Shown: positions 28,623 to 40,543 of the stretch, in pieces
Position numbering within the stretch: position 1 is the stretch's first letter
Layout: the number at the start of each line of letters is the position of its first letter
From: a virus
Lineage: Duplodnaviria; Caudoviricetes
IMG/VR virus record: IMGVR_UViG_3300017700_000931
Span: 224,001 to 288,000 of that record
DNA: 64,000 nucleotides
Strand: one strand, 5' to 3'
Notes under the pieces: model-generated
The model's input: only the letters and a program-made list of their open reading frames with translations
The model's database searches: none
What the model was told of the DNA's origin: nothing
Position numbers and translations under genes: made by a program

Positions 28623-28745
28623 AGGGGTTTAAAATATTTGGCCAAAATTTTCTGGGAAATTTTTTTTTGAAATAGGCATAGGTCACTTTTTACTTCGAAA
28701 AATTTCTGGAAAAAATTTGTTTGTCACTCCATATGCCCTATTAAG

Positions 28746-28822
28746 CACCCCCACACAGGGGGGGTGTAAGAGGGTTTACGGGGGGAGGGGTACGTAGGGG
28801 GTGTTACCCACCCCTCCCCCCG
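28746..28822. repeat. GC-rich inverted repeats / G-tract cluster
   Basis: Perfect 13-bp IR CGGGGGGAGGGGT (28779-28791) / ACCCCTCCCCCCG (28810-28822); CACCCCC/GGGGGTG hairpin (28746-28766). Confidence 0.85.
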
Positions 28823-28833
28823 CTAACAAAGGG

Positions 28834-29367
28834 TTAGGAGAACATCAATGTATCTCCTTTCATGGTCACCTTTGCCATGTTCGTAAGGTTGTAGTTTCGG
28901 TATTGCGTTGACTTCATCTCTTTGCGTATGTCATCTTTCGCAATGGTAAGTGGTTTTCTGGTATCTTCTTTATAGTCACCACTCACTAGCACTTCTTTTT
29001 TTACTTTCATTCCCACCACGTACAATTCGTTGGTTTCGTTGTGAATTTTTAATCCATTTGTCAGGTAAGTATAGGCATTTGTTTGACCTTCACTCATTGC
29101 TTTGCTAGGGCTAATTAGCGCACCTAACAGGGCTTTACGTGCCTCTTCTAATAATGCAGTACCCTGAGTACTTTTAATGGTTTTAACATCGAGGTTTTTA
29201 AGGTATTCAATATCCTTCAGTTTTGCATTCTCATAAGAGACACCGACGTTAATGAGTGTTTTTTGTGTTTCATTTGCTTCGTTTGTGTACACAATTGAAA
29301 CGAATGAGCAACCTGTAATGTTTTTCAGGTTTCCGAATAGTGTTGTAAGTGCTTGTAGAATTTTCAT
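28834..29367 (-). CDS. Hypothetical early protein
   Basis: 177 aa, own promoter-leader module. Confidence 0.75.
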   Translation of the reverse strand: MKILQALTTLFGNLKNITGCSFVSIVYTNEANETQKTLINVGVSYENAKLKDIEYLKNLDVKTIKSTQGTALLEEARKALLGALISPSKAMSEGQTNAYTYLTNGLKIHNETNELYVVGMKVKKEVLVSGDYKEDTRKPLTIAKDDIRKEMKSTQYRNYNLTNMAKVTMKGDTLMFS

Positions 29368-29449: not shown

Positions 29450-30085
29450 TTAACCATTCTTTCTTAATTCTTTTGCAATGGCTTTGAGTTGAATCATTTC
29501 AGTTGTATTCACAATACCATCACCAATATTAGTAGTGAACACCTCCAAGCCACCTTGGTTATTAGGGTTTGAGAATGTCCAACGGTGGTTTTTCGTTTCA
29601 ATAATATACAAGGTACTTGTCTTTGTTTTTTCCATTCGGCATCTACCAGTAATAACGTTTTTTATTCTGCTTTTATTTGGCTTTGCTTTAAACTTAGGGT
29701 TGAACCAAAATTCATTAATATAATCCTGTGTTTCTCTATCTACCATATAGGCTGTAAAGTTCCAACGAAAGTGACCTTTATGAATGGTTTCAAAACTTCT
29801 ATTCATTTGTGTAACGTGCATCCCTCTGAGTTGTACACCTCGTGTAAATCGTTCATTAGACTTCACCTTAGAGTAATCACCCCAACGCTTTATTGTGCCT
29901 TTAGAAATGCTCTTTAACATTCCTTCAATAGACGAAGGTGAACCAATGTTAAAAGCCATGTGGTTCATTTTGTCAGCTAAGGCAGAAATAACGTGCGGTT
30001 GTAATCCTGAATAGCACATTACGAATCTTTCAATTTCCTTTAAGAAATTTTGTTTGAAGTTGGTTACAATTTCTAGTGGTGTCAT
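29450..30085 (-). CDS. Hypothetical early protein
   Basis: 211-aa ORF. Confidence 0.7.
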   Translation of the reverse strand: MTPLEIVTNFKQNFLKEIERFVMCYSGLQPHVISALADKMNHMAFNIGSPSSIEGMLKSISKGTIKRWGDYSKVKSNERFTRGVQLRGMHVTQMNRSFETIHKGHFRWNFTAYMVDRETQDYINEFWFNPKFKAKPNKSRIKNVITGRCRMEKTKTSTLYIIETKNHRWTFSNPNNQGGLEVFTTNIGDGIVNTTEMIQLKAIAKELRKNG

Positions 30086-30091
30086 AGTGGT

Positions 30092-30511
30092 TTATTGGTT
30101 ATTTAAAAATGTGTTTAGTTCTTCTTTATTGTTTGCGTATTGGGCTTCAATCGGGTTATCGTTTGTATCCCATTCAATTCTATTTCCGTCTGAGTCAATC
30201 GGGTAAATAACCCAGAGTTTTTGTATTCTATCGTAGAAGTATTCAAAGCCTTTTTTCTGGTAGGTTTTCATTTCTTTCATGGCTATTTTTTTCAATTGTA
30301 TTTTACCCCATTTATTAGCAATATCAAAACGAACTTCTTTTTCAATATCACCAAATTGAAGTGTTAACACCTCTCCAATCCCACCAACAATTAACGCAGA
30401 GGTAATTTCTTTATTTGTTTCATTTTTAGCAACTAAAAATTTGCGACCTTCAACCTCAACAATTTTAATATTGTTATCAAGGTATTGTATTATTTTACCT
30501 TCAATTTTCAT
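30092..30511 (-). CDS. Hypothetical early protein
   Basis: 139-aa ORF. Confidence 0.65.
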   Translation of the reverse strand: MKIEGKIIQYLDNNIKIVEVEGRKFLVAKNETNKEITSALIVGGIGEVLTLQFGDIEKEVRFDIANKWGKIQLKKIAMKEMKTYQKKGFEYFYDRIQKLWVIYPIDSDGNRIEWDTNDNPIEAQYANNKEELNTFLNNQ

Positions 30512-31252: not shown

Positions 31253-31324
31253 CGCACGAGGTGGGACTCGAACCCACAACTATCCGTTGAAAAGACGGTG
31301 CTTTACCAGTTAAGCTACTGTGCT
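31253..31324 (-). tRNA. Degenerate tRNA (anticodon ambiguous: Lys-UUU or Glu-UUC)
   Basis: TAGCTTAACTGGTAAAGC D-arm and GTGGG-TTCGAGT-CCCAC T-arm intact; bulged acceptor stem, 4-bp anticodon stem CCGT/ACGG, no CCA. Confidence 0.7.
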
Positions 31325-31857: not shown

Positions 31858-32066
31858 ACGGTTACTTTTTTATGTTTTGATGATAACATTAGGTAGTGAC
31901 CTCGTGCCGTTGATAAGAATTACGCTTTCGCCACCTCAACGTGTGTATCCTCTACCTAGTGTTATTGTTTTAGATTACTTTTTCATAACGGGGCGTGTTT
32001 TTGGTTAATACTTTGAATAAATAATATCAGGAAACAAATATAAGTATAATATTTTAATCTACCAAA

Positions 32067-32420
32067 TTAAAATTCAAGTTTTATTTTAGTTATTAATTGG
32101 TTATCGTACATTTGTTCTTTACCCTCAGTATATTCGTATGCTTGTATAATGTATGACAACCAACTTTGTTTGTCATCAAATTCTGAGCGGTTTTCATAAT
32201 CAAAATGAACATCAATAATAGTTCCATCCAATAATGTAACACTCGTCCATTCATCAGAATCATTAAAAACTATTGTTTGTTTACATTTAATGCTAGACTT
32301 TGAATCTTTTTGGAATGTCTCCCAACTTTTATCTTCAAAATCCAAAACAAGTTCAGTACCTTTTTTTAATGTGTATTCTAATACAACACTTCTAAATCCT
32401 AAATTTAATATCGCTTTCAT
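32067..32420 (-). CDS. Hypothetical early protein
   Basis: Start placed at MKAILNLG after the hairpin-leader. Confidence 0.7.
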   Translation of the reverse strand: MKAILNLGFRSVVLEYTLKKGTELVLDFEDKSWETFQKDSKSSIKCKQTIVFNDSDEWTSVTLLDGTIIDVHFDYENRSEFDDKQSWLSYIIQAYEYTEGKEQMYDNQLITKIKLEF

Positions 32421-32823
32421 GGTTATCCGGTTAAATTGGTTATTTGATAAAGGGCATAAAGCCCTTTGGTTAACCACCCATATCCTCTGAAACCTCAGAC
32501 ATCAATGTGCCGTCTTCAAATTCTTTGCCTTCTGCAAGGGCTTCAATTTCCTCACCCTCAATAGAACGAGTAACGGCTCTTAATGCTGACAAAATTTGTT
32601 CCTTTGTTCCTGAACCAGTAATTTTAATTTGTAATTGCATATCGTTTGTTTTAGTTTGACTGATACAAATATAATACTATATTTTCAATTGACCAAATTA
32701 TTTTGAACTTATTTTATGAATTAATTTCACAACAATTGGTTGAACATAAGAAAGTGTTATAATCATTCCGCTCACAATTAAAATAAAGTACATAGGTTGA
32801 GTTTTTGATAAGGGTTTTACCCC

Positions 32824-33015
32824 TTATTCTTCTTCCTCAACATCAATAATATCGGAGGCAGAAATATCTGAAATGAAAATCTTTGGTTCTGCTTCCAGTT
32901 CACTAGCACCAACAATATTATTCATTACCTCTAAGGTGTCCTGAACCTCTGTCAAATCATTCCCACCCTCTTTAATTAACAATTGAATTTGTACGGTTAC
33001 TGTAATTGCTTTCAT
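32824..33015 (-). CDS. Small acidic early protein
   Basis: 63 aa, cassette leader. Confidence 0.7.
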   Translation of the reverse strand: MKAITVTVQIQLLIKEGGNDLTEVQDTLEVMNNIVGASELEAEPKIFISDISASDIIDVEEEE

Positions 33016-33060
33016 ATCTGGTTACTTTTATTAGTTTGATAAAGGGGTTTCCCCCTTTAT

Positions 33061-33390
33061 TTAGTTAGTCGTATAAGCAATTGAAACAACAATATATTCT
33101 TCATCGACTGTATGTGTGTTAACCTCAACCGCAACATAGAAATCACTCTCAGTTTGGGCTTCAACACATTCGTGAATAATATCAATTGGTTGGTCATAAG
33201 TTTCAAGTGTTTCTTCAATCACTCGTTCTGCTTCTGAAACGAAACCTTTTTCTAAGGTATCCTCTCTATACTGTTCTACATTTTCTGTGAAGTCAGCATC
33301 AAAGAATAATTCTAAGAGGCTTTCTTTTGTAAGTTTACCATCTTCACCGAATCGAACAATTACTAATTTTGAATTTAATGTTACTTGCAT
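33061..33390 (-). CDS. Acidic early protein
   Basis: 109 aa, cassette leader. Confidence 0.75.
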   Translation of the reverse strand: MQVTLNSKLVIVRFGEDGKLTKESLLELFFDADFTENVEQYREDTLEKGFVSEAERVIEETLETYDQPIDIIHECVEAQTESDFYVAVEVNTHTVDEEYIVVSIAYTTN

Positions 33391-33436
33391 ATCTGGTTAC
33401 TTTTTAGTTTGATATTGGGGGCAATTGCCCCCAAAT

Positions 33437-33622
33437 TTAAATACTTTCTTCAAAATTATGGTCAATAGCTTGGTCAACAATACCAGAGTCAACAACTTTA
33501 ACGCCATCAGTATTGGTTGTAATTGTACAATCAAGTTCTTCAGCAATTTTTCTCAATTGTTTTGGGGTTACTGGTTTGTCAAGTTCAACTCGTACATTTA
33601 AATAAAAAACATTCACTTTCAT
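33437..33622 (-). CDS. Small early protein
   Basis: 61 aa, cassette leader. Confidence 0.7.
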   Translation of the reverse strand: MKVNVFYLNVRVELDKPVTPKQLRKIAEELDCTITTNTDGVKVVDSGIVDQAIDHNFEESI

Positions 33623-33846
33623 ATCTGGTTACATTTTTAGTTTGATAAAAGAGGGGAATTAATTCCACCCCTTTTTGTGCTTATCCTTTCGGTTATAAGC
33701 CTTTTTGTTTTTTTGCACCATTGGGCGTACCGCTTGGTGAATTTCGTGTTGGGTGAGTTGAATTGTTTGCAGTTTCATAATTGGTTATTTTAGTTTGACA
33801 TGACAAATATAATACAATATTTCTTATCCACCAAACTTTTTTGCAA

Positions 33847-34179
33847 TTATTTTTTACTTAAATCGTAAGGCACTGCATCCAAGCCATATTCACAGGTATA
33901 TCCAATGGCTTCCAATTTCTCCACTAAGGTAGCACAAGCCTCATAAGTCATCGTATCAGTTGAGTACTTGTCTAATACTGCTTTAACCTCGTCCGGCAAG
34001 TTGTCGTAATCCTCAAATAAATCGGTACTTTGGTTAAATAACTCCAACCATTGTTTGGTTGTATATAAACCATATTTATTTCTACATTCGTCAATACTTA
34101 GATTGAATCTAATTGACGCAATATTCAAATATTTTCTGTAGGTTGAAATTGCTGGTAATTTGTCCTCTATTTGGTTCAT
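33847..34179 (-). CDS. Hypothetical early protein
   Basis: 110 aa, cassette leader. Confidence 0.7.
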   Translation of the reverse strand: MNQIEDKLPAISTYRKYLNIASIRFNLSIDECRNKYGLYTTKQWLELFNQSTDLFEDYDNLPDEVKAVLDKYSTDTMTYEACATLVEKLEAIGYTCEYGLDAVPYDLSKK

Positions 34180-34222
34180 ACTGGTTACATTTATTAGTTT
34201 GATAAGGGGTTAACCCCCTTGC

Positions 34223-34435
34223 TTATAATCTCTCAATTATAAGCATTGACTTTTTGAATTCATGGTTACACCCATCACATGCCATACTGAAATAAATTTC
34301 ATTATCGTGACCCAATAATTTGTATGCTTTTTTTAAATCTGGGTCAGCCTCCTGAATTTGGTTTTTACTGGAATGTGCCAATGGTTCGTTGTCGGTTGTA
34401 CGCACCATGAAAGAATTGCATTTTGGACAGTTCAT
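34223..34435 (-). CDS. Small zinc-ribbon protein
   Basis: MNCPKC...ACDGCNHEF; start after the leader. Confidence 0.7.
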   Translation of the reverse strand: MNCPKCNSFMVRTTDNEPLAHSSKNQIQEADPDLKKAYKLLGHDNEIYFSMACDGCNHEFKKSMLIIERL

Positions 34436-34482
34436 AAAGTTGTTTATTAGTTTGATATTTGTGGGGCAATTGCCCCACAAAT

Positions 34483-34767
34483 TTAATAAACACAAATTTC
34501 CTCCATCTTAATATCCTCATAGAAATCTGAATCCTCAGCCTCAATTAAAACGTGTGCTGACAATACAACGGTTGTGCTTAATTGAAGACTTTCAACTGTA
34601 ACAATTTTCACCGGACAAGAATAATGTTCTTTCAATGCCAAAACTAGTTTTGGCTCAACAATTTCTCTTAGGTTAATTTTTTTAGTATCGTTGACTTCAC
34701 CTAAGTCAATAACACCAACATTTTTTTGACCTTCAATCGCAATGTTTACAAAGATTCTTCTTTTCAT
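34483..34767 (-). CDS. Hypothetical early protein
   Basis: Start placed at MKRRIF. Confidence 0.7.
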   Translation of the reverse strand: MKRRIFVNIAIEGQKNVGVIDLGEVNDTKKINLREIVEPKLVLALKEHYSCPVKIVTVESLQLSTTVVLSAHVLIEAEDSDFYEDIKMEEICVY

Positions 34768-34870
34768 AATGGTTACGTTTATTAGTTTGACAATACAAAT
34801 ATAATACAATATTTGATATAAACCAAATTATTTGTAATTAATTTTGATAAAGGGGTTTCCCCCTTTGTGG

Positions 34871-35380
34871 TTATCTGTAATACTCCCTTACAGTATAATC
34901 AATGGTTTGCTTGAACGCATCCAATTCCTTTTGCATCTCGTTTAGCTTAGCCAGTTTTTTCAATTCAGCATCCAAATCAATGGTTTTATCCAAATCGTAC
35001 TCAGTGACTAGTTTATCGTAATCCTCGACGCTAATCAATAAGCCGTCTTTAATTTGACCAATTGCAATTCTTCGCTCAAAGTATTCTGTATATGCAGTGC
35101 TTGGACGAACGTCATAAGAACCACCGAATTTGCATATCTTGAAATTAATATACATACATCCATGAGCAAAGGTAATATACCCAACGGAACGCTCACCTTT
35201 TTCATCCTTTACAATAAGAGGTAATAACGAATCAGCACTTTTAACCAGTACGTTACTTGCTTTAACAATTTTTTTGCCTAGGAAAAATACTAAGGCGGGT
35301 AGAATTTGTTTTAGGGTTTCTTTAATTGCGGTATTCAATTCCTTGTTACCTTCAATCACAATGTTAATAGGTGTTTTCAT
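34871..35380 (-). CDS. Hypothetical early protein
   Basis: 169 aa, promoter-leader module. Confidence 0.75.
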   Translation of the reverse strand: MKTPINIVIEGNKELNTAIKETLKQILPALVFFLGKKIVKASNVLVKSADSLLPLIVKDEKGERSVGYITFAHGCMYINFKICKFGGSYDVRPSTAYTEYFERRIAIGQIKDGLLISVEDYDKLVTEYDLDKTIDLDAELKKLAKLNEMQKELDAFKQTIDYTVREYYR

Positions 35381-35537
35381 AATTTAGTGGTTTAGTTTAT
35401 TAGTTTGACTGGTACAAATATAATACTATATTTTTAATCTACCAAATAAAAAGTGAATTATTTTTAAATAAAAAAACCCCATCCAGACCGGACAGGGTTT
35501 TCCTCGTGAAATTGTCGTCAAACTATAACCACGGAAA

Positions 35538-35732
35538 TTATTTTGTTTTGTTATGGTTGTCCATAACTTGTTTATACTCTTTCATCAGGTCGTCGTGCAT
35601 ACCCTCATTGAGCGGTTTTAACTTAGCAAAAAAGAATCCACAATTTGCCTCCGCAGGTGTTTTGCTACCAGACTTTATTGCTCTCATTCCGGCTCTAATT
35701 TTATCAATACTCATTTCCTCGGTTGTCTTCAT
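35538..35732 (-). CDS. Small hypothetical protein with the late-type upstream motif
   Basis: 64 aa; ATATTTAT at 35753-35760; terminator at ~35471-35500. Confidence 0.65.
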   Translation of the reverse strand: MKTTEEMSIDKIRAGMRAIKSGSKTPAEANCGFFFAKLKPLNEGMHDDLMKEYKQVMDNHNKTK

Positions 35733-36010
35733 AGTGGTTTATTGGTTTGTTGATAAATATAAGACTATATAAATAAAGTTGGGTCCGTAACTGGGTAGGG
35801 TTGTTACGGACCCTCTTTATTAGTCAAACTAAAAACTACTTAAAGTATTTTGCGTAATATGGTCTACGTTTTTGTTTGTGCTTGTATTCCTTTACCAATT
35901 GTGGCAACACAATTCGTTTAGGTAATACGGCACTGAATTGAACAGGTGAAAATAATAACAAGAATGCGAAAATAATTGCTTTCATAATAATTTGGTTTTT
36001 GTGGTTAATA

Positions 36011-36265
36011 TTAATTCATTGCAAGGTTGTAAGCCTTAGAAATCTTGGTGAGGTTTTCATTAATAATACGAATATCATTCTTAATATCATTAATGGTAAT
36101 ATCACCCGTACCTTTAAGCCCATCAAACATTTTGGTGGCTTCAATTAACATTCGGTTACCATGTCGTTTTGCGACCATTAAAGCGAATAAATCCATATCC
36201 ATCAAAAAATGTTCTGGGGTCTGGTTTGTCTCTTCCAGAAACAACTCAGTTAATTGGTTTGCCAT
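36011..36265 (-). CDS. Hypothetical early protein
   Basis: Start placed at MANQLT. Confidence 0.65.
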   Translation of the reverse strand: MANQLTELFLEETNQTPEHFLMDMDLFALMVAKRHGNRMLIEATKMFDGLKGTGDITINDIKNDIRIINENLTKISKAYNLAMN

Positions 36266-36337
36266 ATTGGTTAATTTAGTTTGACTGGATAAAGGTAAGA
36301 ACAACTTTTCAATATTCCAAATTATTCTTACCTTTTT

Positions 36338-36736
36338 TTATGCTTTTTTCAATTTCAGTCGTTGAATGTTATTTGTGTGCTTATCTTTGAAGCGTCTCCA
36401 ACCAAGACCAGACCAATAAGCATAACATTCAACAAAATCATCCTTTGCCTCATCTTTATAGGCTTGTGGGTCGAGTTCTTTTAACACCTCTCTGAATTCA
36501 TCAAACTCTGCTTTAGAAATTCCATCAGTATATTGAATTGGGTCTGTGTCAGTTGGGAGTGTCCCGAATGGGCATTCTTTGTCATCCTCAATGCTTTCAA
36601 CATTATCAGACAAATCATGGTCAAGTTGTGTTTGAAGTCCTTTTTTTGCTTTTGAAAGCGTTTCTTCTCTTGTCGCAGTTTCATCAACAATAACACGAGT
36701 TAAAAGAGTTACATGTACTAGTTTGGCTACTTTCAT
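36338..36736 (-). CDS. Hypothetical early protein
   Basis: 132 aa, cassette leader. Confidence 0.7.
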   Translation of the reverse strand: MKVAKLVHVTLLTRVIVDETATREETLSKAKKGLQTQLDHDLSDNVESIEDDKECPFGTLPTDTDPIQYTDGISKAEFDEFREVLKELDPQAYKDEAKDDFVECYAYWSGLGWRRFKDKHTNNIQRLKLKKA

Positions 36737-36787
36737 ATTTGGTTACTTTTAGTTTGATAATGGTGGGGCGGTTAAGCCCCCACCAAT

Positions 36788-37171
36788 TTACTCTTCTTCT
36801 TCAATAGCTTCTAACCCTGCATCCTCACCATGCACTCCAATAGCAAACCAAATTTGTTCCATTGTGGCTTCATTTTTTAAAGCGTTGTGTAGAACTTTTT
36901 GTGCCTCTTCATCAGTGCATTTGAATTTCGCTTTAACATCAGCAACACTCCAAAGGTTATCAGTATAGAATCCGGCTTTTCTCAATAGTTCTTTAGCCAA
37001 TTCAACATCACTTTTTACCACATCGAATTCAGTGTTTTTCACTTTAATCCAAATATCTTTTCTTGGGTGTTTAACACTCATCAAAGTGTCAGAAAATTCC
37101 AGTGGAAGCCCTTGTGGAAATACAACACCGAATTTTTTACTTACTTTTTGTTTTTTTAGAATAACTTTCAT
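36788..37171 (-). CDS. Hypothetical early protein
   Basis: Start placed at MKVILKK. Confidence 0.7.
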   Translation of the reverse strand: MKVILKKQKVSKKFGVVFPQGLPLEFSDTLMSVKHPRKDIWIKVKNTEFDVVKSDVELAKELLRKAGFYTDNLWSVADVKAKFKCTDEEAQKVLHNALKNEATMEQIWFAIGVHGEDAGLEAIEEEE

Positions 37172-37214
37172 AGTATGTGTTTTAGTTTGACGATACAAAT
37201 ATAATACTATATTT

Positions 37215-37694
37215 CTAATTAACCAAATTTTTTATAATCTTTTTTACACTTTTTTTTATTTGGGGAATTTGGTTACGTCGGAATCTAGGATTCCAGCCCG
37301 TTTCACATAAGGCAATAGATTCCATTGTCGACCAAGAAATATTGGTTATTGCAGTATATCCAGACCAACCACTGTTGGCTAAATCTTTATAGACTCCTTT
37401 AGAGTCCATATAGCAAGTGCCTAATTTAACGAAACAATGGGCTAAATACATACCCTCTGAATTGAATTCAGCTAATGTGGGTTTGTTGTTCGTTTCTAAT
37501 ATTTTATTGAATTTATCCTCAGTACAATTACGACCTAACCAAACAATTTCGGCTTTATATCCGGCTTTGCAAAGTTCCTTTGCTAGTAAATAAGCAACAA
37601 TACCACATCCACCTGCATTCAGGTTAAAATAATTTCCTTCAAGTTCATCAGGGAGTAGTACGTTAAGTTTGGTTAAGACTTTTTTGGTTACCAT
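37215..37694 (-). CDS. Possible papain/transglutaminase-like Cys-His-Asp protein
   Basis: LNAGGCGIVAYLL...AHCFVK...YMDSKG. Confidence 0.55.
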   Translation of the reverse strand: MVTKKVLTKLNVLLPDELEGNYFNLNAGGCGIVAYLLAKELCKAGYKAEIVWLGRNCTEDKFNKILETNNKPTLAEFNSEGMYLAHCFVKLGTCYMDSKGVYKDLANSGWSGYTAITNISWSTMESIALCETGWNPRFRRNQIPQIKKSVKKIIKNLVN

Positions 37695-37741
37695 ATTTGG
37701 TTAGGTTTTTGATAAATGGGGGTATTGCTACCCCCATTCTT

Positions 37742-38554
37742 TTATTTGAAACGTTTCAAAATGTCCTTAACGCTTTCGCTTTTCAGGGCAATGTACAACT
37801 CAATCAATTTGGTTGCTTCGTCGCTTTTGTCCTCACGTTTGTCAAGGGCTTCAACAACCTCTTTCAATTTTTGCATTGGGCTTTTTGCTGTCAAAGTAGC
37901 AACGTGTTTTGTTGTCGCTTTTTTCGGTGCTTTGCCAGTTTCAACTGCCGTTGCTTTTGCTGAATCAATTGCCTCGGTAACAATTTTCAATTGCTCATCA
38001 GCATTTTTTGTTTGCTTCACAATTTGAACAACTGTACCACCAGAAATCAAACCTTCAATTACGAAGTTTTTAATTTGTTTCCCAACGTTGGCAAGTGACA
38101 ACAAGTTGTAAATGTGTGGAACTGACTTCGCAATTTTTTGTGAAATCTCTTCTGGTTTGTAGTGCATTGCAACAAGGCGTTTAATTGCCTCAGCTTGCTC
38201 CACTTCATTCAGGGCTTTTTGCCCCGTACCAGTCACAATCATTGTGAAAATCTGGTCTTCCTCATTCCCTGTGTAAGGCGCAACCTCAACGTAAGGAATT
38301 GACTCACCTCTTTTCAAAAGAATCTGAATCGCTGCGAAACGTCTGTGACCGTCAACCAATTCGTAGGTATCTTCACCACGAGTTTTTTTAGCCTTCAATG
38401 GAACTTCCAGACCAATTGAGGCAATTGAATCTGCTAGGGCTTCCAAATCACCCATGTCAAGACGCACGTTGAATCCCTCACGTACCACAATGTTGCGTGG
38501 GTCAACAAGCATTGTATCTTTTCTTTTTGTAACTAATACTGCTCCTTTTTTCAT
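37742..38554 (-). CDS. ParB/Srx-like N-terminal domain protein with HTH
   Basis: GFNVR...LADSI...GLEVPL...YELVDGHRRFAAI; LNEVEQAEAIKRL. Confidence 0.9.
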   Translation of the reverse strand: MKKGAVLVTKRKDTMLVDPRNIVVREGFNVRLDMGDLEALADSIASIGLEVPLKAKKTRGEDTYELVDGHRRFAAIQILLKRGESIPYVEVAPYTGNEEDQIFTMIVTGTGQKALNEVEQAEAIKRLVAMHYKPEEISQKIAKSVPHIYNLLSLANVGKQIKNFVIEGLISGGTVVQIVKQTKNADEQLKIVTEAIDSAKATAVETGKAPKKATTKHVATLTAKSPMQKLKEVVEALDKREDKSDEATKLIELYIALKSESVKDILKRFK

Positions 38555-38872
38555 AACTTTTTTGGTTTTTAATTAATAATGATGTGACAAATATAATAGG
38601 ATATTTTTAATTGACCAAATAATATTATAATTATTTTCGTCAAAGTTATTAACAATTTAGAAATTCGTAGTGTTTTTGCCGGGTTCAGGAGCATTCTTTT
38701 TTATTACTAGGAACGCATTGCCGAAAATATTGCTAGTGAATCCAACAATAATATGTTCACCCTTTGGAGTGTCAACAACCAAATTTCCTTTTGGGTCAAT
38801 CGAAAGTTGTGAAAGTTCTTTGTTATGGTTCATAATAATATTATTTTGATAAAGGGCTTTAAAGCCCTTTGG

Positions 38873-39130
38873 TTAAGTGTGAATTACAAATCTGCTCTCT
38901 GACCCATAATACGAATATAATAACGGGTAAGTATTGCTAATCTCACTCAAATATCTCACTTCAATGTTAATGGTTGCACCATCCTTGCAAATTGCTTTAT
39001 ACTTGTTGTGCAAGTGTTCCAAGGCTAATTGAATTAAGTTTACATCGGTTTCCTTTAACACCGTATCAAATACAACTGGTTTCCCATCGGTTTTAACTTC
39101 AACACTTACTTTTAGAATATCGTTTTTCAT
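38873..39130 (-). CDS. Hypothetical early protein
   Basis: 85 aa, cassette leader. Confidence 0.7.
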   Translation of the reverse strand: MKNDILKVSVEVKTDGKPVVFDTVLKETDVNLIQLALEHLHNKYKAICKDGATINIEVRYLSEISNTYPLLYSYYGSESRFVIHT

Positions 39131-39179
39131 AGTTGGTTACATTCATTGGTTTGATAAGGGGTATTAACCCCTATTATTA

Positions 39180-39620
39180 TTATTTTACATTATATTCAAT
39201 AATTCTTAAACTTTTGAATGGCGCACCAGTAACCGACATACCACCACTCGAATTTGTTTTAAGAATTTCAAGGTGACAAGGAATAAAACCAGTTGACTTA
39301 CCTACAATAAATCTTCTCTTTTCTCCGTATTTGTCAACAACCTCAACTCTGTGACCTTCTTTACCAATTAATTCAGGTATTAACTGGGACTGACTTCTCC
39401 AACCAGTTTTATCATTTCTATCACTAGCAATTTTTACTAAATTAGTATAATTGGTGTATGCTTTTTTTGTACCTTTTTTCTTTGGAATTAAATCCTCCAT
39501 TCCAAGTTCTTTGGCTAAGGCAATGGTTCTATCCTGACATACATCAAAACCAAGGCAAGTGAATCCACTACCACAATTTAATACAAATAACTGTTGTTCT
39601 TTATTTATTGAATTTAACAT
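39180..39620 (-). CDS. Conserved-looking phage hypothetical protein
   Basis: Start placed at MLNSINK; C-terminal RRFIVGKSTGFIPCHLE. Confidence 0.75.
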   Translation of the reverse strand: MLNSINKEQQLFVLNCGSGFTCLGFDVCQDRTIALAKELGMEDLIPKKKGTKKAYTNYTNLVKIASDRNDKTGWRSQSQLIPELIGKEGHRVEVVDKYGEKRRFIVGKSTGFIPCHLEILKTNSSGGMSVTGAPFKSLRIIEYNVK

Positions 39621-39876
39621 ATCTAATAGTTTTAGTTTGACAGGACAAATATAATACAATATTTGATATAAACCAAATTATTTGTATTCTTTTTTAAAAT
39701 AAGTTTTTAACTCAGCTAATGTGAATAACTTTTGGTATTGTGTACATTGTGTTCTATAACCCCCATCCACCGGAATGACGTTATCAGACTTTAACCATTT
39801 GTTGAATTCTTTCATAGGATAAAGGAGGTCTTTCGACCTCCCTTGTAACTTGGTAATGAATTTGTACATTCCATAC

Positions 39877-40188
39877 CTAAGCCTTGTTTTTAATCTCAGT
39901 CCATTCACCGTTCCACTCTGTGCCGTTCAAATACCATGTACCTTGACGTTGGCTAATTCTTACGTTAGGTAGGCCGTTCAAACGCTCCTTAGTGGTGTTA
40001 CTTTTCCAACCTGCATTTGTAATGCTTAGTTTGGACTTTGTTAGACTGGTCAATTCTCTTTTTGCAATTACATTGCCATGCAATAAAAGTGTTGTAACTT
40101 TATCAGAAACTTCAACACTCATGTTCGCTTTTTTGAAAGGAGTCCCAGTCAAAAATGCCTCAATACTTTCTTCAGTAATTTTTTTCAT
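39877..40188 (-). CDS. Hypothetical early protein
   Basis: Start placed at MKKITEES; AGWKSNTTKERLNG. Confidence 0.75.
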   Translation of the reverse strand: MKKITEESIEAFLTGTPFKKANMSVEVSDKVTTLLLHGNVIAKRELTSLTKSKLSITNAGWKSNTTKERLNGLPNVRISQRQGTWYLNGTEWNGEWTEIKNKA

Positions 40189-40285
40189 AATGGTTACGTT
40201 TATTAGTTTGACAATACAAATATAATACAATATTTGATATAAACCAAATTATTTGTAATTATTTTTGATAAAGGGTTTTACCCCC

Positions 40286-40543
40286 TTACCATGCTTCCCC
40301 GTCACCAATAAATAATTTACCATTCTGGAAACTTGGCTCATATTCTTTATGGTCTGCAACCATATCACCAGTTTCATAGAATGTACTTAAATCAGCTAAT
40401 TCTAATTCGTGACAAACACAAACAACAAAGGTATCCCCACCATGTATAGGGTGTTCAACAAATTGAATTTTCTGACCTAATGAATTAACCATTTCACTGT
40501 AAACAGTTGGGTTCAATTCCATTAATTTTTTATAGTTTAACAT
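40286..40543 (-). CDS. Hypothetical early protein
   Basis: Start placed at MLNYKKL. Confidence 0.65.
   Translation of the reverse strand: MLNYKKLMELNPTVYSEMVNSLGQKIQFVEHPIHGGDTFVVCVCHELELADLSTFYETGDMVADHKEYEPSFQNGKLFIGDGEAW

Follow-up and report, generated by a model that had tools for sequence, protein, structure and literature searches.

How do the small early genes of a jumbo phage, some of them lacking a promoter of their own, come to be joined, expressed and exchanged between strains? This question is raised by the window examined here, a stretch of 64,000 nucleotides (nt) covering positions 224,001 to 288,000 of the IMG/VR virus record IMGVR_UViG_3300017700_000931, in which 13 short GC-rich hairpins, each followed by the word TATCAAA, stand between genes. 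The window belongs to a complete virus genome of 362,532 bp that has direct terminal repeats and a G+C content of 33%; the phage is a Bacteroidota jumbo phage, and the hairpin linkers join its small early genes. An identical copy (100%) from another sample, L249, contributes no variation and indicates that the sequence is not an assembly artefact. From 28 to 42 kb the minus strand of the window forms an arm of about 36 small genes, almost every one of which is preceded by one of two module types, a promoter module or a hairpin module. The promoter modules are near-identical and of Bacteroidota type (TTTGG, about 19 nt, TAnnTTTG, then GTCAAACTAA and an A-rich leader). By alignment, the hairpin modules are best described as promoter-less members of one intergenic linker cassette family. 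For comparison we used relatives found via protein look-ups, L162 (10.2 kb), L243/L244 (10.3 kb) and L245/L246, whose gene-by-gene amino-acid identity with the window ranges from 40% to 100%.

The 13 hairpin modules all lie on the minus strand, the orientation of the genes, within 7.8 kb. All are present near the positions at which an earlier, sequence-only reading of this DNA had placed them, and the two examples that it spelled out (33388-33439 and 33013-33063) read as quoted. The A of ATCAAA falls at 40269, 39155, 38850, 37713, 36758, 34848 and 34456 in the first seven copies and at 34203, 33646, 33413, 33040, 32809 and 32448 in the other six. The layout of the family is TAA, a G-run/C-run stem-loop, TATCAAA, an optional 57-nt host-type promoter, an A-rich unpaired leader and ATG. 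The hairpin had been described as directly following a stop codon, which is accurate to within a few nucleotides (it starts 0-9 nt past the TAA) except in copy 33646, where the TAA lies inside the loop. TATCAAA is invariant in 13 of 13 window modules and in 10 modules of L162, L243 and L245, 23 of 23 in all, and is kept intact despite a synonymous divergence (dS) of 0.1-0.9 in the flanking genes. The remainder of the leader proposed from the sequence, CTAA after TATCAAA and GTAACC(AG) ahead of the start codon, proved far less constant: CTAA follows in 6 of 13 copies and GTAACCA occurs in 6 of 13. Eleven copies pass directly into the unpaired A-rich leader and ATG, with 13-29 nt from TATCAAA to the start codon, whereas two (34848 and 40269) continue not into a start codon but into a complete host-type promoter module.

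The concentration of these modules is specific to the arm. The window contains 49 copies of TATCAAA, compared with 33 +/- 5.5 in shuffled sequence, and a GC hairpin followed by ATCAAA was found 13 times on one strand in the 7.8 kb, with eight other matches scattered over the genome. Those eight do not have the stop-hairpin-leader-ATG layout, two of them resemble tRNA arms, and the scan returned no further true module in the 362-kb genome. A separate genome scan for hairpins that follow stop codons and have no U-tract found a single look-alike elsewhere, at genome position 318,513. This look-alike, on the plus strand and outside the window (genome 318,507-318,541, about 94,510 in window numbering), consists of TAA, the hairpin GAGGGGTAAAACCCTC, ATCAAG and the ATG of a 276-amino-acid open reading frame (ORF); its GGGGTAAAACCC hairpin recurs in modules 40269 and 32809, but it lies on the opposite strand and far from the early arm.

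Stem pairing, and not stem sequence, is under selection, as the sequence-only reading had anticipated in noting that the stems vary yet stay paired. Pairing between the two arms of the same copy averaged 7.7 bp, compared with 1.4-1.7 bp when arms were exchanged between copies, and none of 20,000 permutations scored as high. The closing pair varies by copy (GC, CG, TA or AT), and compensatory changes in the L162 orthologs keep the hairpins paired. Each module folds to a single hairpin of -8 to -19 kcal/mol, with a short, perfect stem of 4-11 contiguous pairs and a loop of 4-9 nt as folded, followed by an unpaired AU-rich leader. In an Rfam search of 27-43 kb no module matched a curated covariance model; the only convincing match was tRNA-like (31253-31323), and two weak matches fell below the gathering score (37586-37751 on the plus strand, and 28740-28849).

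Despite their position behind stop codons, the hairpins are not standard, full terminators. The absence of a long U-tract had been noted from the letters, and with a T-tract rule of at least five T in eight, applied on the modules' own strand, 0 of 13 passed; in three copies (33413, 34456 and 36758) no more than two T's immediately follow the stem. Elsewhere, the 35 hairpins of the genome that do have a run of five or more T have stems of mostly 8-15 bp. The 11 downstream genes without their own promoter gave ratios of nonsynonymous to synonymous substitution (dN/dS) of 0.0-0.41 against their orthologs, which is purifying selection. These genes must therefore be expressed, most simply via read-through, and together with the missing U-tract their conservation argues against full termination at the hairpins. 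A function as terminators for antisense transcription was considered as well and rejected, as the plus-strand tails are not consistently T-rich.

The relation of the hairpin modules to the promoters was clearest in alignment: removing exactly 57 nt, flanked by a TCAAA repeat, from the form with hairpin and promoter gives the promoter-less form, and the alignment contains no further gap. A leader of the form CTAATAAA-N-GTAACCA is common to the hairpin modules and to the two compound cassettes that hold both hairpin and promoter, and the other promoter modules do not have it. The same conversion is seen between strains. In L243, the hairpin found at window 34768..34870 runs at TATCAAA straight into a different gene's leader and the 57 nt are missing, and the promoter module before the gene for the ParB-like protein in the window corresponds to a hairpin module in L162. 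The sequence-only reading had explained the shared leader as a product of RNA cutting; since the two forms differ by this one 57-nt indel, descent and interconversion would suffice to explain it and cutting is not required.

Both compound cassettes are on the minus strand. The one at 40189..40285 consists of TAA, hairpin arms GGGGGT and ACCCTT, TATCAAA, a promoter running from TTTGG to TATATTTG, the GTCAAACTAA leader and ATG, and from the hairpin's 3' arm on it hardly differs from the second, at 34768..34870 (hairpin AAGGGGG-AAA-CCCCTTT, TATCAAA, the 57-nt promoter block, leader, and the ATG of a 94-amino-acid gene). The resulting repeats of about 82 nt, promoter plus leader (window 40189-40270 and 34768-34849), lie 5.4 kb apart in direct orientation, and their near-identity extends from the 3' arm of two different hairpins to the ATG of two unrelated genes. 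We regard them as candidate substrates for deletion or mini-circle formation.

What follows the hairpin resembles a translation start described for one bacterial species. The initiation region of Flavobacterium johnsoniae is unpaired and has A's at -11 to -14 (PMC6847099), and the module leader agrees with it, being unpaired with A's at about -11 to -14.

Comparison of strains indicated that the modules are also borders of exchange. The linkers are where insertions, deletions and replacements of early gene cassettes stop when strains are compared: recombination breakpoints, on which part of the sequence-only reading turned, do fall at the modules, those against L243, L245 and L162 lying at 34843/34220, 33616, 32826, 38851 and 38574, in the modules or at their edges. 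Two hairpin modules enclose a 623-bp segment that the window has and L243 does not, and the overlap of the alignments consists of the hairpin plus TATCAAA. L243 further has a different 61-amino-acid gene in place of three window genes, the replacement extending from just past the ATG behind module 33646 to the TAA and hairpin foot of module 32809. At module 38834..38872 the similarity of L245 to the window starts precisely at TATCAAA; what precedes it in L245 is an unrelated gene with a hairpin of its own (TTTGGTC-ATAA-GACCAAA). The homology of L162 before ParB begins at ATCA. Compared with L162, the linkers are islands of 92-98% identity between gene bodies of 52-75%, and identity changes from about 90% to about 60% at module 37695..37741, after ParB. 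Other breakpoints were located at the hairpin 5' foot, at the ATG or within promoters. A further difference was seen in the same arm, where window 29450-30511 encodes genes of 139 and 211 amino acids and L162 4392-5078 encodes one 228-amino-acid gene, with only 41% identity over part of its length; this is another cassette replacement.

We think it probable that each module is a read-through intercistronic stem-loop, part leaky attenuator and part 3' stabiliser, placed before a standard initiation region without a Shine-Dalgarno sequence, and that it doubles as a recombination linker. Host RNA polymerase would mostly read through the stem-loop, which has no U-tract; the stem-loop would act as a leaky attenuator and, once transcribed, as a 3' cap shielding the upstream cistron from exonucleases. 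The downstream gene would be translated from the same kind of initiation region as the promoter-born early mRNAs, and the linkers, which persist between genes that are otherwise unrelated, may serve as exchange points for early gene cassettes, as do the promoter-early stem-loops (PeSLs) of T4-type phages. By analogy, our best reading is that the modules are a promoter-less variant of a Bacteroidota counterpart to PeSL cassettes. Several points weigh against this interpretation. Read-through, stabilisation and the absence of cleavage are all deduced from sequence, and the folds are about equally stable in sense and antisense (9 copies favour sense, 6 antisense), so that the sequence cannot separate a hairpin acting in RNA from one acting in DNA. 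By a rough estimate from spacer lengths, hairpin modules make up about 40% of the intergenic DNA here, and viable recombinants in so tightly packed a region must break between genes; the breakpoint positions therefore do not show that hairpins promote recombination. PeSL stem-loops are reported to be effective terminators (PMC2839356, PMC4122927), whereas the modules are devoid of U-tracts. Finally, a passive linker or stabiliser does not explain the strict invariance of TATCAAA, which hints at a specific recognition event by a nuclease, a protein or a polymerase.

That invariance, beside stems that vary in sequence, is a point in favour of a first competing explanation. A host or phage endoribonuclease might cut the 3' foot of the hairpin (approximately UAU/CAAA), leaving a hairpin-capped upstream mRNA and a downstream 5' end like that of a promoter-born leader. 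The sigma-A -7 box is reported to span -12 to -5 (PMC9723704), which puts the start of promoter-born transcripts at the base (G or A) just before TCAAAC, so that cleavage 5' of AUCAAAC would yield an end like that of a primary transcript; the leader behind the hairpin, unpaired and AU-rich, is a further point in favour. We nevertheless consider processing unlikely, though the most serious of the alternatives: the 57-nt indel already accounts for the shared leader, TATCAAA is retained in the two compound cassettes, where a promoter follows and no cut is needed, and no Rfam family was matched; a search for RegB and RegA homologs found none, but the controls had no match for those families either, which leaves it uninformative. 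A second class of promoter, in which TATCAAA would be a -10-like element for host polymerase with a phage sigma factor and the hairpin an upstream terminator, seems to us improbable. The invariance of TATCAAA at a fixed place would suit such an element, PmSL variants of PeSLs exist in vibriophage nt-1 (PMC4122927), and the genome encodes four ORFs with sigma-70 region 2 and gave no match to the RNA polymerase beta-subunit domain PF00562 in a profile search (a search for T7-type RNA polymerase, PF00940, also found no match in the genome, nor did it in the control genomes). Upstream of the other 487 ORFs, however, TATCAAA is no more frequent than expected (12 seen, 11.5 expected), its distance to ATG in the 11 promoter-less modules is only 13-29 nt, no conserved upstream element accompanies it as the stems vary, and selection on pairing would be superfluous for a promoter.

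A third alternative is recognition on DNA. According to the sequence-only reading the hairpins might be attC-like, and a dedicated enzyme that recognises hairpin plus TATCAAA and moves gene cassettes, as at an integron junction, would fit the homology to L245 that begins exactly at TATCAAA behind an unrelated gene and hairpin, the homology to L162 that begins at ATCA, and the TCAAA words bounding the 57-nt indel; the authors of the PeSL work speculated that GGGG..CCCC stems are targets of a recombination protein (PMC2839356). The complete genome had no match to the tyrosine recombinase family PF00589, which all control genomes matched, and none to serine recombinases or the Y1 transposase PF01797; the stems reach only 4-11 contiguous pairs and show neither attC boxes nor extrahelical bases; and the remaining breakpoints, at hairpin 5' feet, start codons and promoters, are those that short-homology recombination predicts. 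Such a site-specific junction is in our view very improbable, and identity with attC sites proper is ruled out by the missing recombinase and the short perfect stems without R/L boxes. Hairpin ends of the REP/RAYT or IS200/IS605 kind were likewise ruled out, there being no Y1 (HUH) transposase and the stem sequences being variable. A bolder version, in which hairpin and TATCAAA form a dedicated junction and the early arm is an integron-like array of promoter-less cassettes, cut and rejoined by some phage function, on DNA or RNA, exactly at the hairpin foot without a known recombinase family, strikes us as about as improbable as a second promoter class. Least credible of all is that the hairpins are efficient non-canonical terminators whose downstream genes are silent or expressed only after antitermination. 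Their placement after stops and G/C-rich stems are terminator-like, and the promoter behind two of the copies recalls a standard terminator-promoter unit; against this stand the missing U-tract, most marked in copies 33413, 34456 and 36758, the classic T-rich terminators of the same genome, and the purifying selection on the 11 promoter-less genes.

The individual promoter-less modules, all on the minus strand, differ in detail. Module 39131..39179 has the hairpin AGGGGT-TAAT-ACCCCT followed by TATCAAACCAA .. GTAACCA and the ATG of an 85-amino-acid gene; a near-identical hairpin in L162, with one base pair flipped from A-T to T-A, sits before ParB. Module 38834..38872 combines the hairpin AAAGGGCT-TTAA-AGCCCTTT with TATCAAAA and the ATG of a 58-amino-acid gene. 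The module after the gene for the ParB-like protein, 37695..37741, has an 11-bp hairpin (-18.2 kcal/mol, z-score -4.8), again TATCAAAA, and the ATG of a 159-amino-acid gene, and its L162 ortholog preserves the hairpin through two double, compensatory changes. At 36737..36787, an 8-bp hairpin with a 9-nt loop precedes TATCAAACTAAAAGTAACCA and the ATG of a 132-amino-acid gene; this module is conserved in L162 and L243, as an island of 92-93% identity between gene bodies of 65-75%. The most stable copy, 34436..34482 (-19 kcal/mol, z-score -6.1), lies inside the 623-bp segment absent from L243 and consists of an 11-bp hairpin with no T after the stem, TATCAAACTAA and the ATG of a 70-amino-acid zinc-ribbon-like gene. 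The right-hand border of that segment is module 34180..34222 (hairpin AGGGGG-TTAA-CCCCTT, TATCAAACTAATAAATGTAACCA, ATG of a 110-amino-acid gene).

In module 33623..33676 the hairpin starts inside a 39-amino-acid ORF whose TAA is in the loop, and TATCAAACTAAAAATGTAACCA and the ATG of a 61-amino-acid gene follow; it is the left border of the L243 gene replacement, with homology stopping just past the ATG. Module 33391..33436 (z-score -3.4) has the hairpin TTGGGGGC-AATT-GCCCCCAA, whose stem is not followed by a T, and continues with TATCAAACTAAAAAGTAACCA and the ATG of a 109-amino-acid gene, and module 33016..33060 has AAAGGGGG-AAA-CCCCTTT, TATCAAACTAATAAAAGTAACCA and the ATG of a 63-amino-acid gene. 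The right border of the L243 replacement, at the TAA and hairpin foot, is module 32794..32826, in which the TAA stop lies within the stem and TATCAAAAAC leads to the ATG of a 31-amino-acid hydrophobic ORF. This ORF (window 32698-32793, minus strand) differs from its L243 copy only at synonymous positions and probably encodes a real small membrane peptide. The last module, 32421..32469, reads AAAGGGC-TTTAT-GCCCTTT, TATCAAATAACC and the ATG of a 117-amino-acid gene; L243 has the same stem with a GTAA loop in place of TTTAT.

Eight of the 13 modules belong to a block of about 3.4 kb (32036..35465, minus strand) that is absent from L162 and bounded by a direct repeat of about 52 nt, the upstream part of a promoter with TTTGGTAGATTAAAA; L162 3440-3491 matches both copies, window 35465-35414 and 32087-32036, so that promoter repeats flank the indel. 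A 72-nt promoter-like module at 36266..36337 (minus strand), in which the arms of a stem-loop enclose the -33 box, is present in the window and L243, and L162 has just 5 nt at that junction.

Family matches within the arm were few, namely a ParB-like protein, DUF932, Kyano_Gp96 and phrog_10759, and most ORFs belong to no known family. Gene duplication as the source of the repeats was rejected, as no paralog pair was found among the 36 ORFs at E < 0.01. Just ahead of the start codon, AACCA or GTAACCA recurs 2-5 nt upstream of many ATGs in the 28-42 kb arm, and the relative L247 has ACACT in its place; this may be a lineage-specific element. Elsewhere in the genome there is one GIY-YIG ORF (genome position 77,062-77,280).

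Beyond the close relatives, the hairpin/TATCAAA form looks specific to this phage lineage. A megablast search of the region against a phage collection found no close match, scans of IMG/VR for the leader, the promoter and hairpin plus TATCAAA gave single matches per locus, mostly due to chance, and no contig with several modules, and ParB-based locus searches in IMG/VR found no matches. Homologs of the 146- and 85-amino-acid genes occur in unrelated phages that have no hairpin modules. The promoter pattern is more widespread: in JGI metagenomes it identified more distant phages, the JABAOE/JABAOH contigs (L167, L168, L177, L181 and L191; 37-38% G+C), which carry a Bacteroidota-type promoter and the same GTCAAACTAA leader before most genes, a few genes abutting directly, and no hairpin modules. 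On these contigs the shared leader reads TGTCAAACTAA, the stop codon abuts the -33 box, and the spacing from the -7 box to TCAAAC is 0 to 7 nt. L247 has the leader TCACACTAA..ACACT-ATG and one hairpin module with neither U-tract nor TATCAAA; at L247 5300-7438, a few kb from its ParB early cassette region, are genes resembling NUMOD4/HNH_3 homing endonucleases. In an unrelated large phage (IMG/VR contigs L009 and L010, 168 and 142 kb), classic terminators followed by a repeated word (TTGTAACTTTTTGAA .. ATCGTTATA) precede many genes, which looks like another PeSL-like family of terminator-promoter cassettes with a different promoter consensus.

The modules mark the early accessory region of the phage and its exchangeable genes. 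They also offer a case of natural strain variation in which a promoter, a hairpin or both stand before one standard leader at the same site, and as a strong promoter, a read-through hairpin and a standard translation leader they are parts that could be used in Bacteroidota synthetic biology. Should it turn out that TATCAAA signals cleavage or recombination, a new recognition element would have come to light.

Known systems share individual features with these linkers. Integron attC sites are imperfect palindromes of 57-141 bp with R''/L''-L'/R' boxes, extrahelical bases and a GTTRRRY core. Like them, the modules place a palindromic element at the 3' end of a cassette with a conserved 7-nt boundary word, and promoter-less cassettes are read from upstream; unlike them, they have short perfect stems, a TATCAAA core, no R/L boxes or extrahelical bases and no integrase. 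The RNase III sites of phage T7, which separate early genes on a polycistronic transcript, are long and irregular double-stranded stems, and cutting there stabilises the upstream mRNA. The hairpins here also lie between early genes, yet 4-11 contiguous pairs are too short for RNase III. Hairpin promoters of the N4 type go with a single-subunit virion RNA polymerase and have conserved stems and a 3-nt loop, and the variation of both stems and loops in the modules argues against membership. Closer in presumed function are the intercistronic stem-loops that stabilise mRNA, such as the E. coli REP element in malE-malF and those of Rhodobacter puf and the pap operon, which are single cases or host-wide repeats. 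As in these, a stable hairpin without a U-tract sits between co-transcribed genes and could block 3' exonucleases and set segment stability; the difference is that the phage has a 13-member family in 7.8 kb, with a fixed 7-mer and a link by descent to promoter cassettes.

The closest parallel remains the PeSL of T4-type phages (RB49/phi1, PST and nt-1), which combines an intergenic polyG/polyC stem-loop with a strong early promoter of host type; PeSLs lie beside ORFans in hyperplastic regions and recombine with one another, giving indels and mini-circles (PMC2839356, PMC4122927). The modules share with PeSLs a place between the stop codon of one gene and the ATG of the next, among small ORFans, a G-run/C-run stem-loop of nearly the same form as the nt-1 consensus (A3-4 G3 - loop - C3 T3-4), near-identical strong host-type early promoters in the cassettes, indels and replacements between close relatives that break inside cassettes (here against L162, L243 and L245), and a variable placement of the stem-loop relative to the promoter (here 36266-36337). 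The two compound cassettes have the PeSL layout outright. The modules differ from PeSLs in the host phylum, Bacteroidota, with its -33 TTTG and -7 TAnnTTTG promoter and no Shine-Dalgarno sequence, in the invariant TATCAAA at the junction, and in that 11 of the 13 copies do not have the promoter that is a defining feature of PeSLs, which is found only at 34848 and 40269. There is no sequence homology between the two, and the modules are thus an analogue of PeSLs rather than a member of that family by descent. Together, these comparisons suggest that the linker-cassette design of T4-type gene shuffling also exists in a jumbo phage of a phylum without Shine-Dalgarno sequences, built there from different parts.

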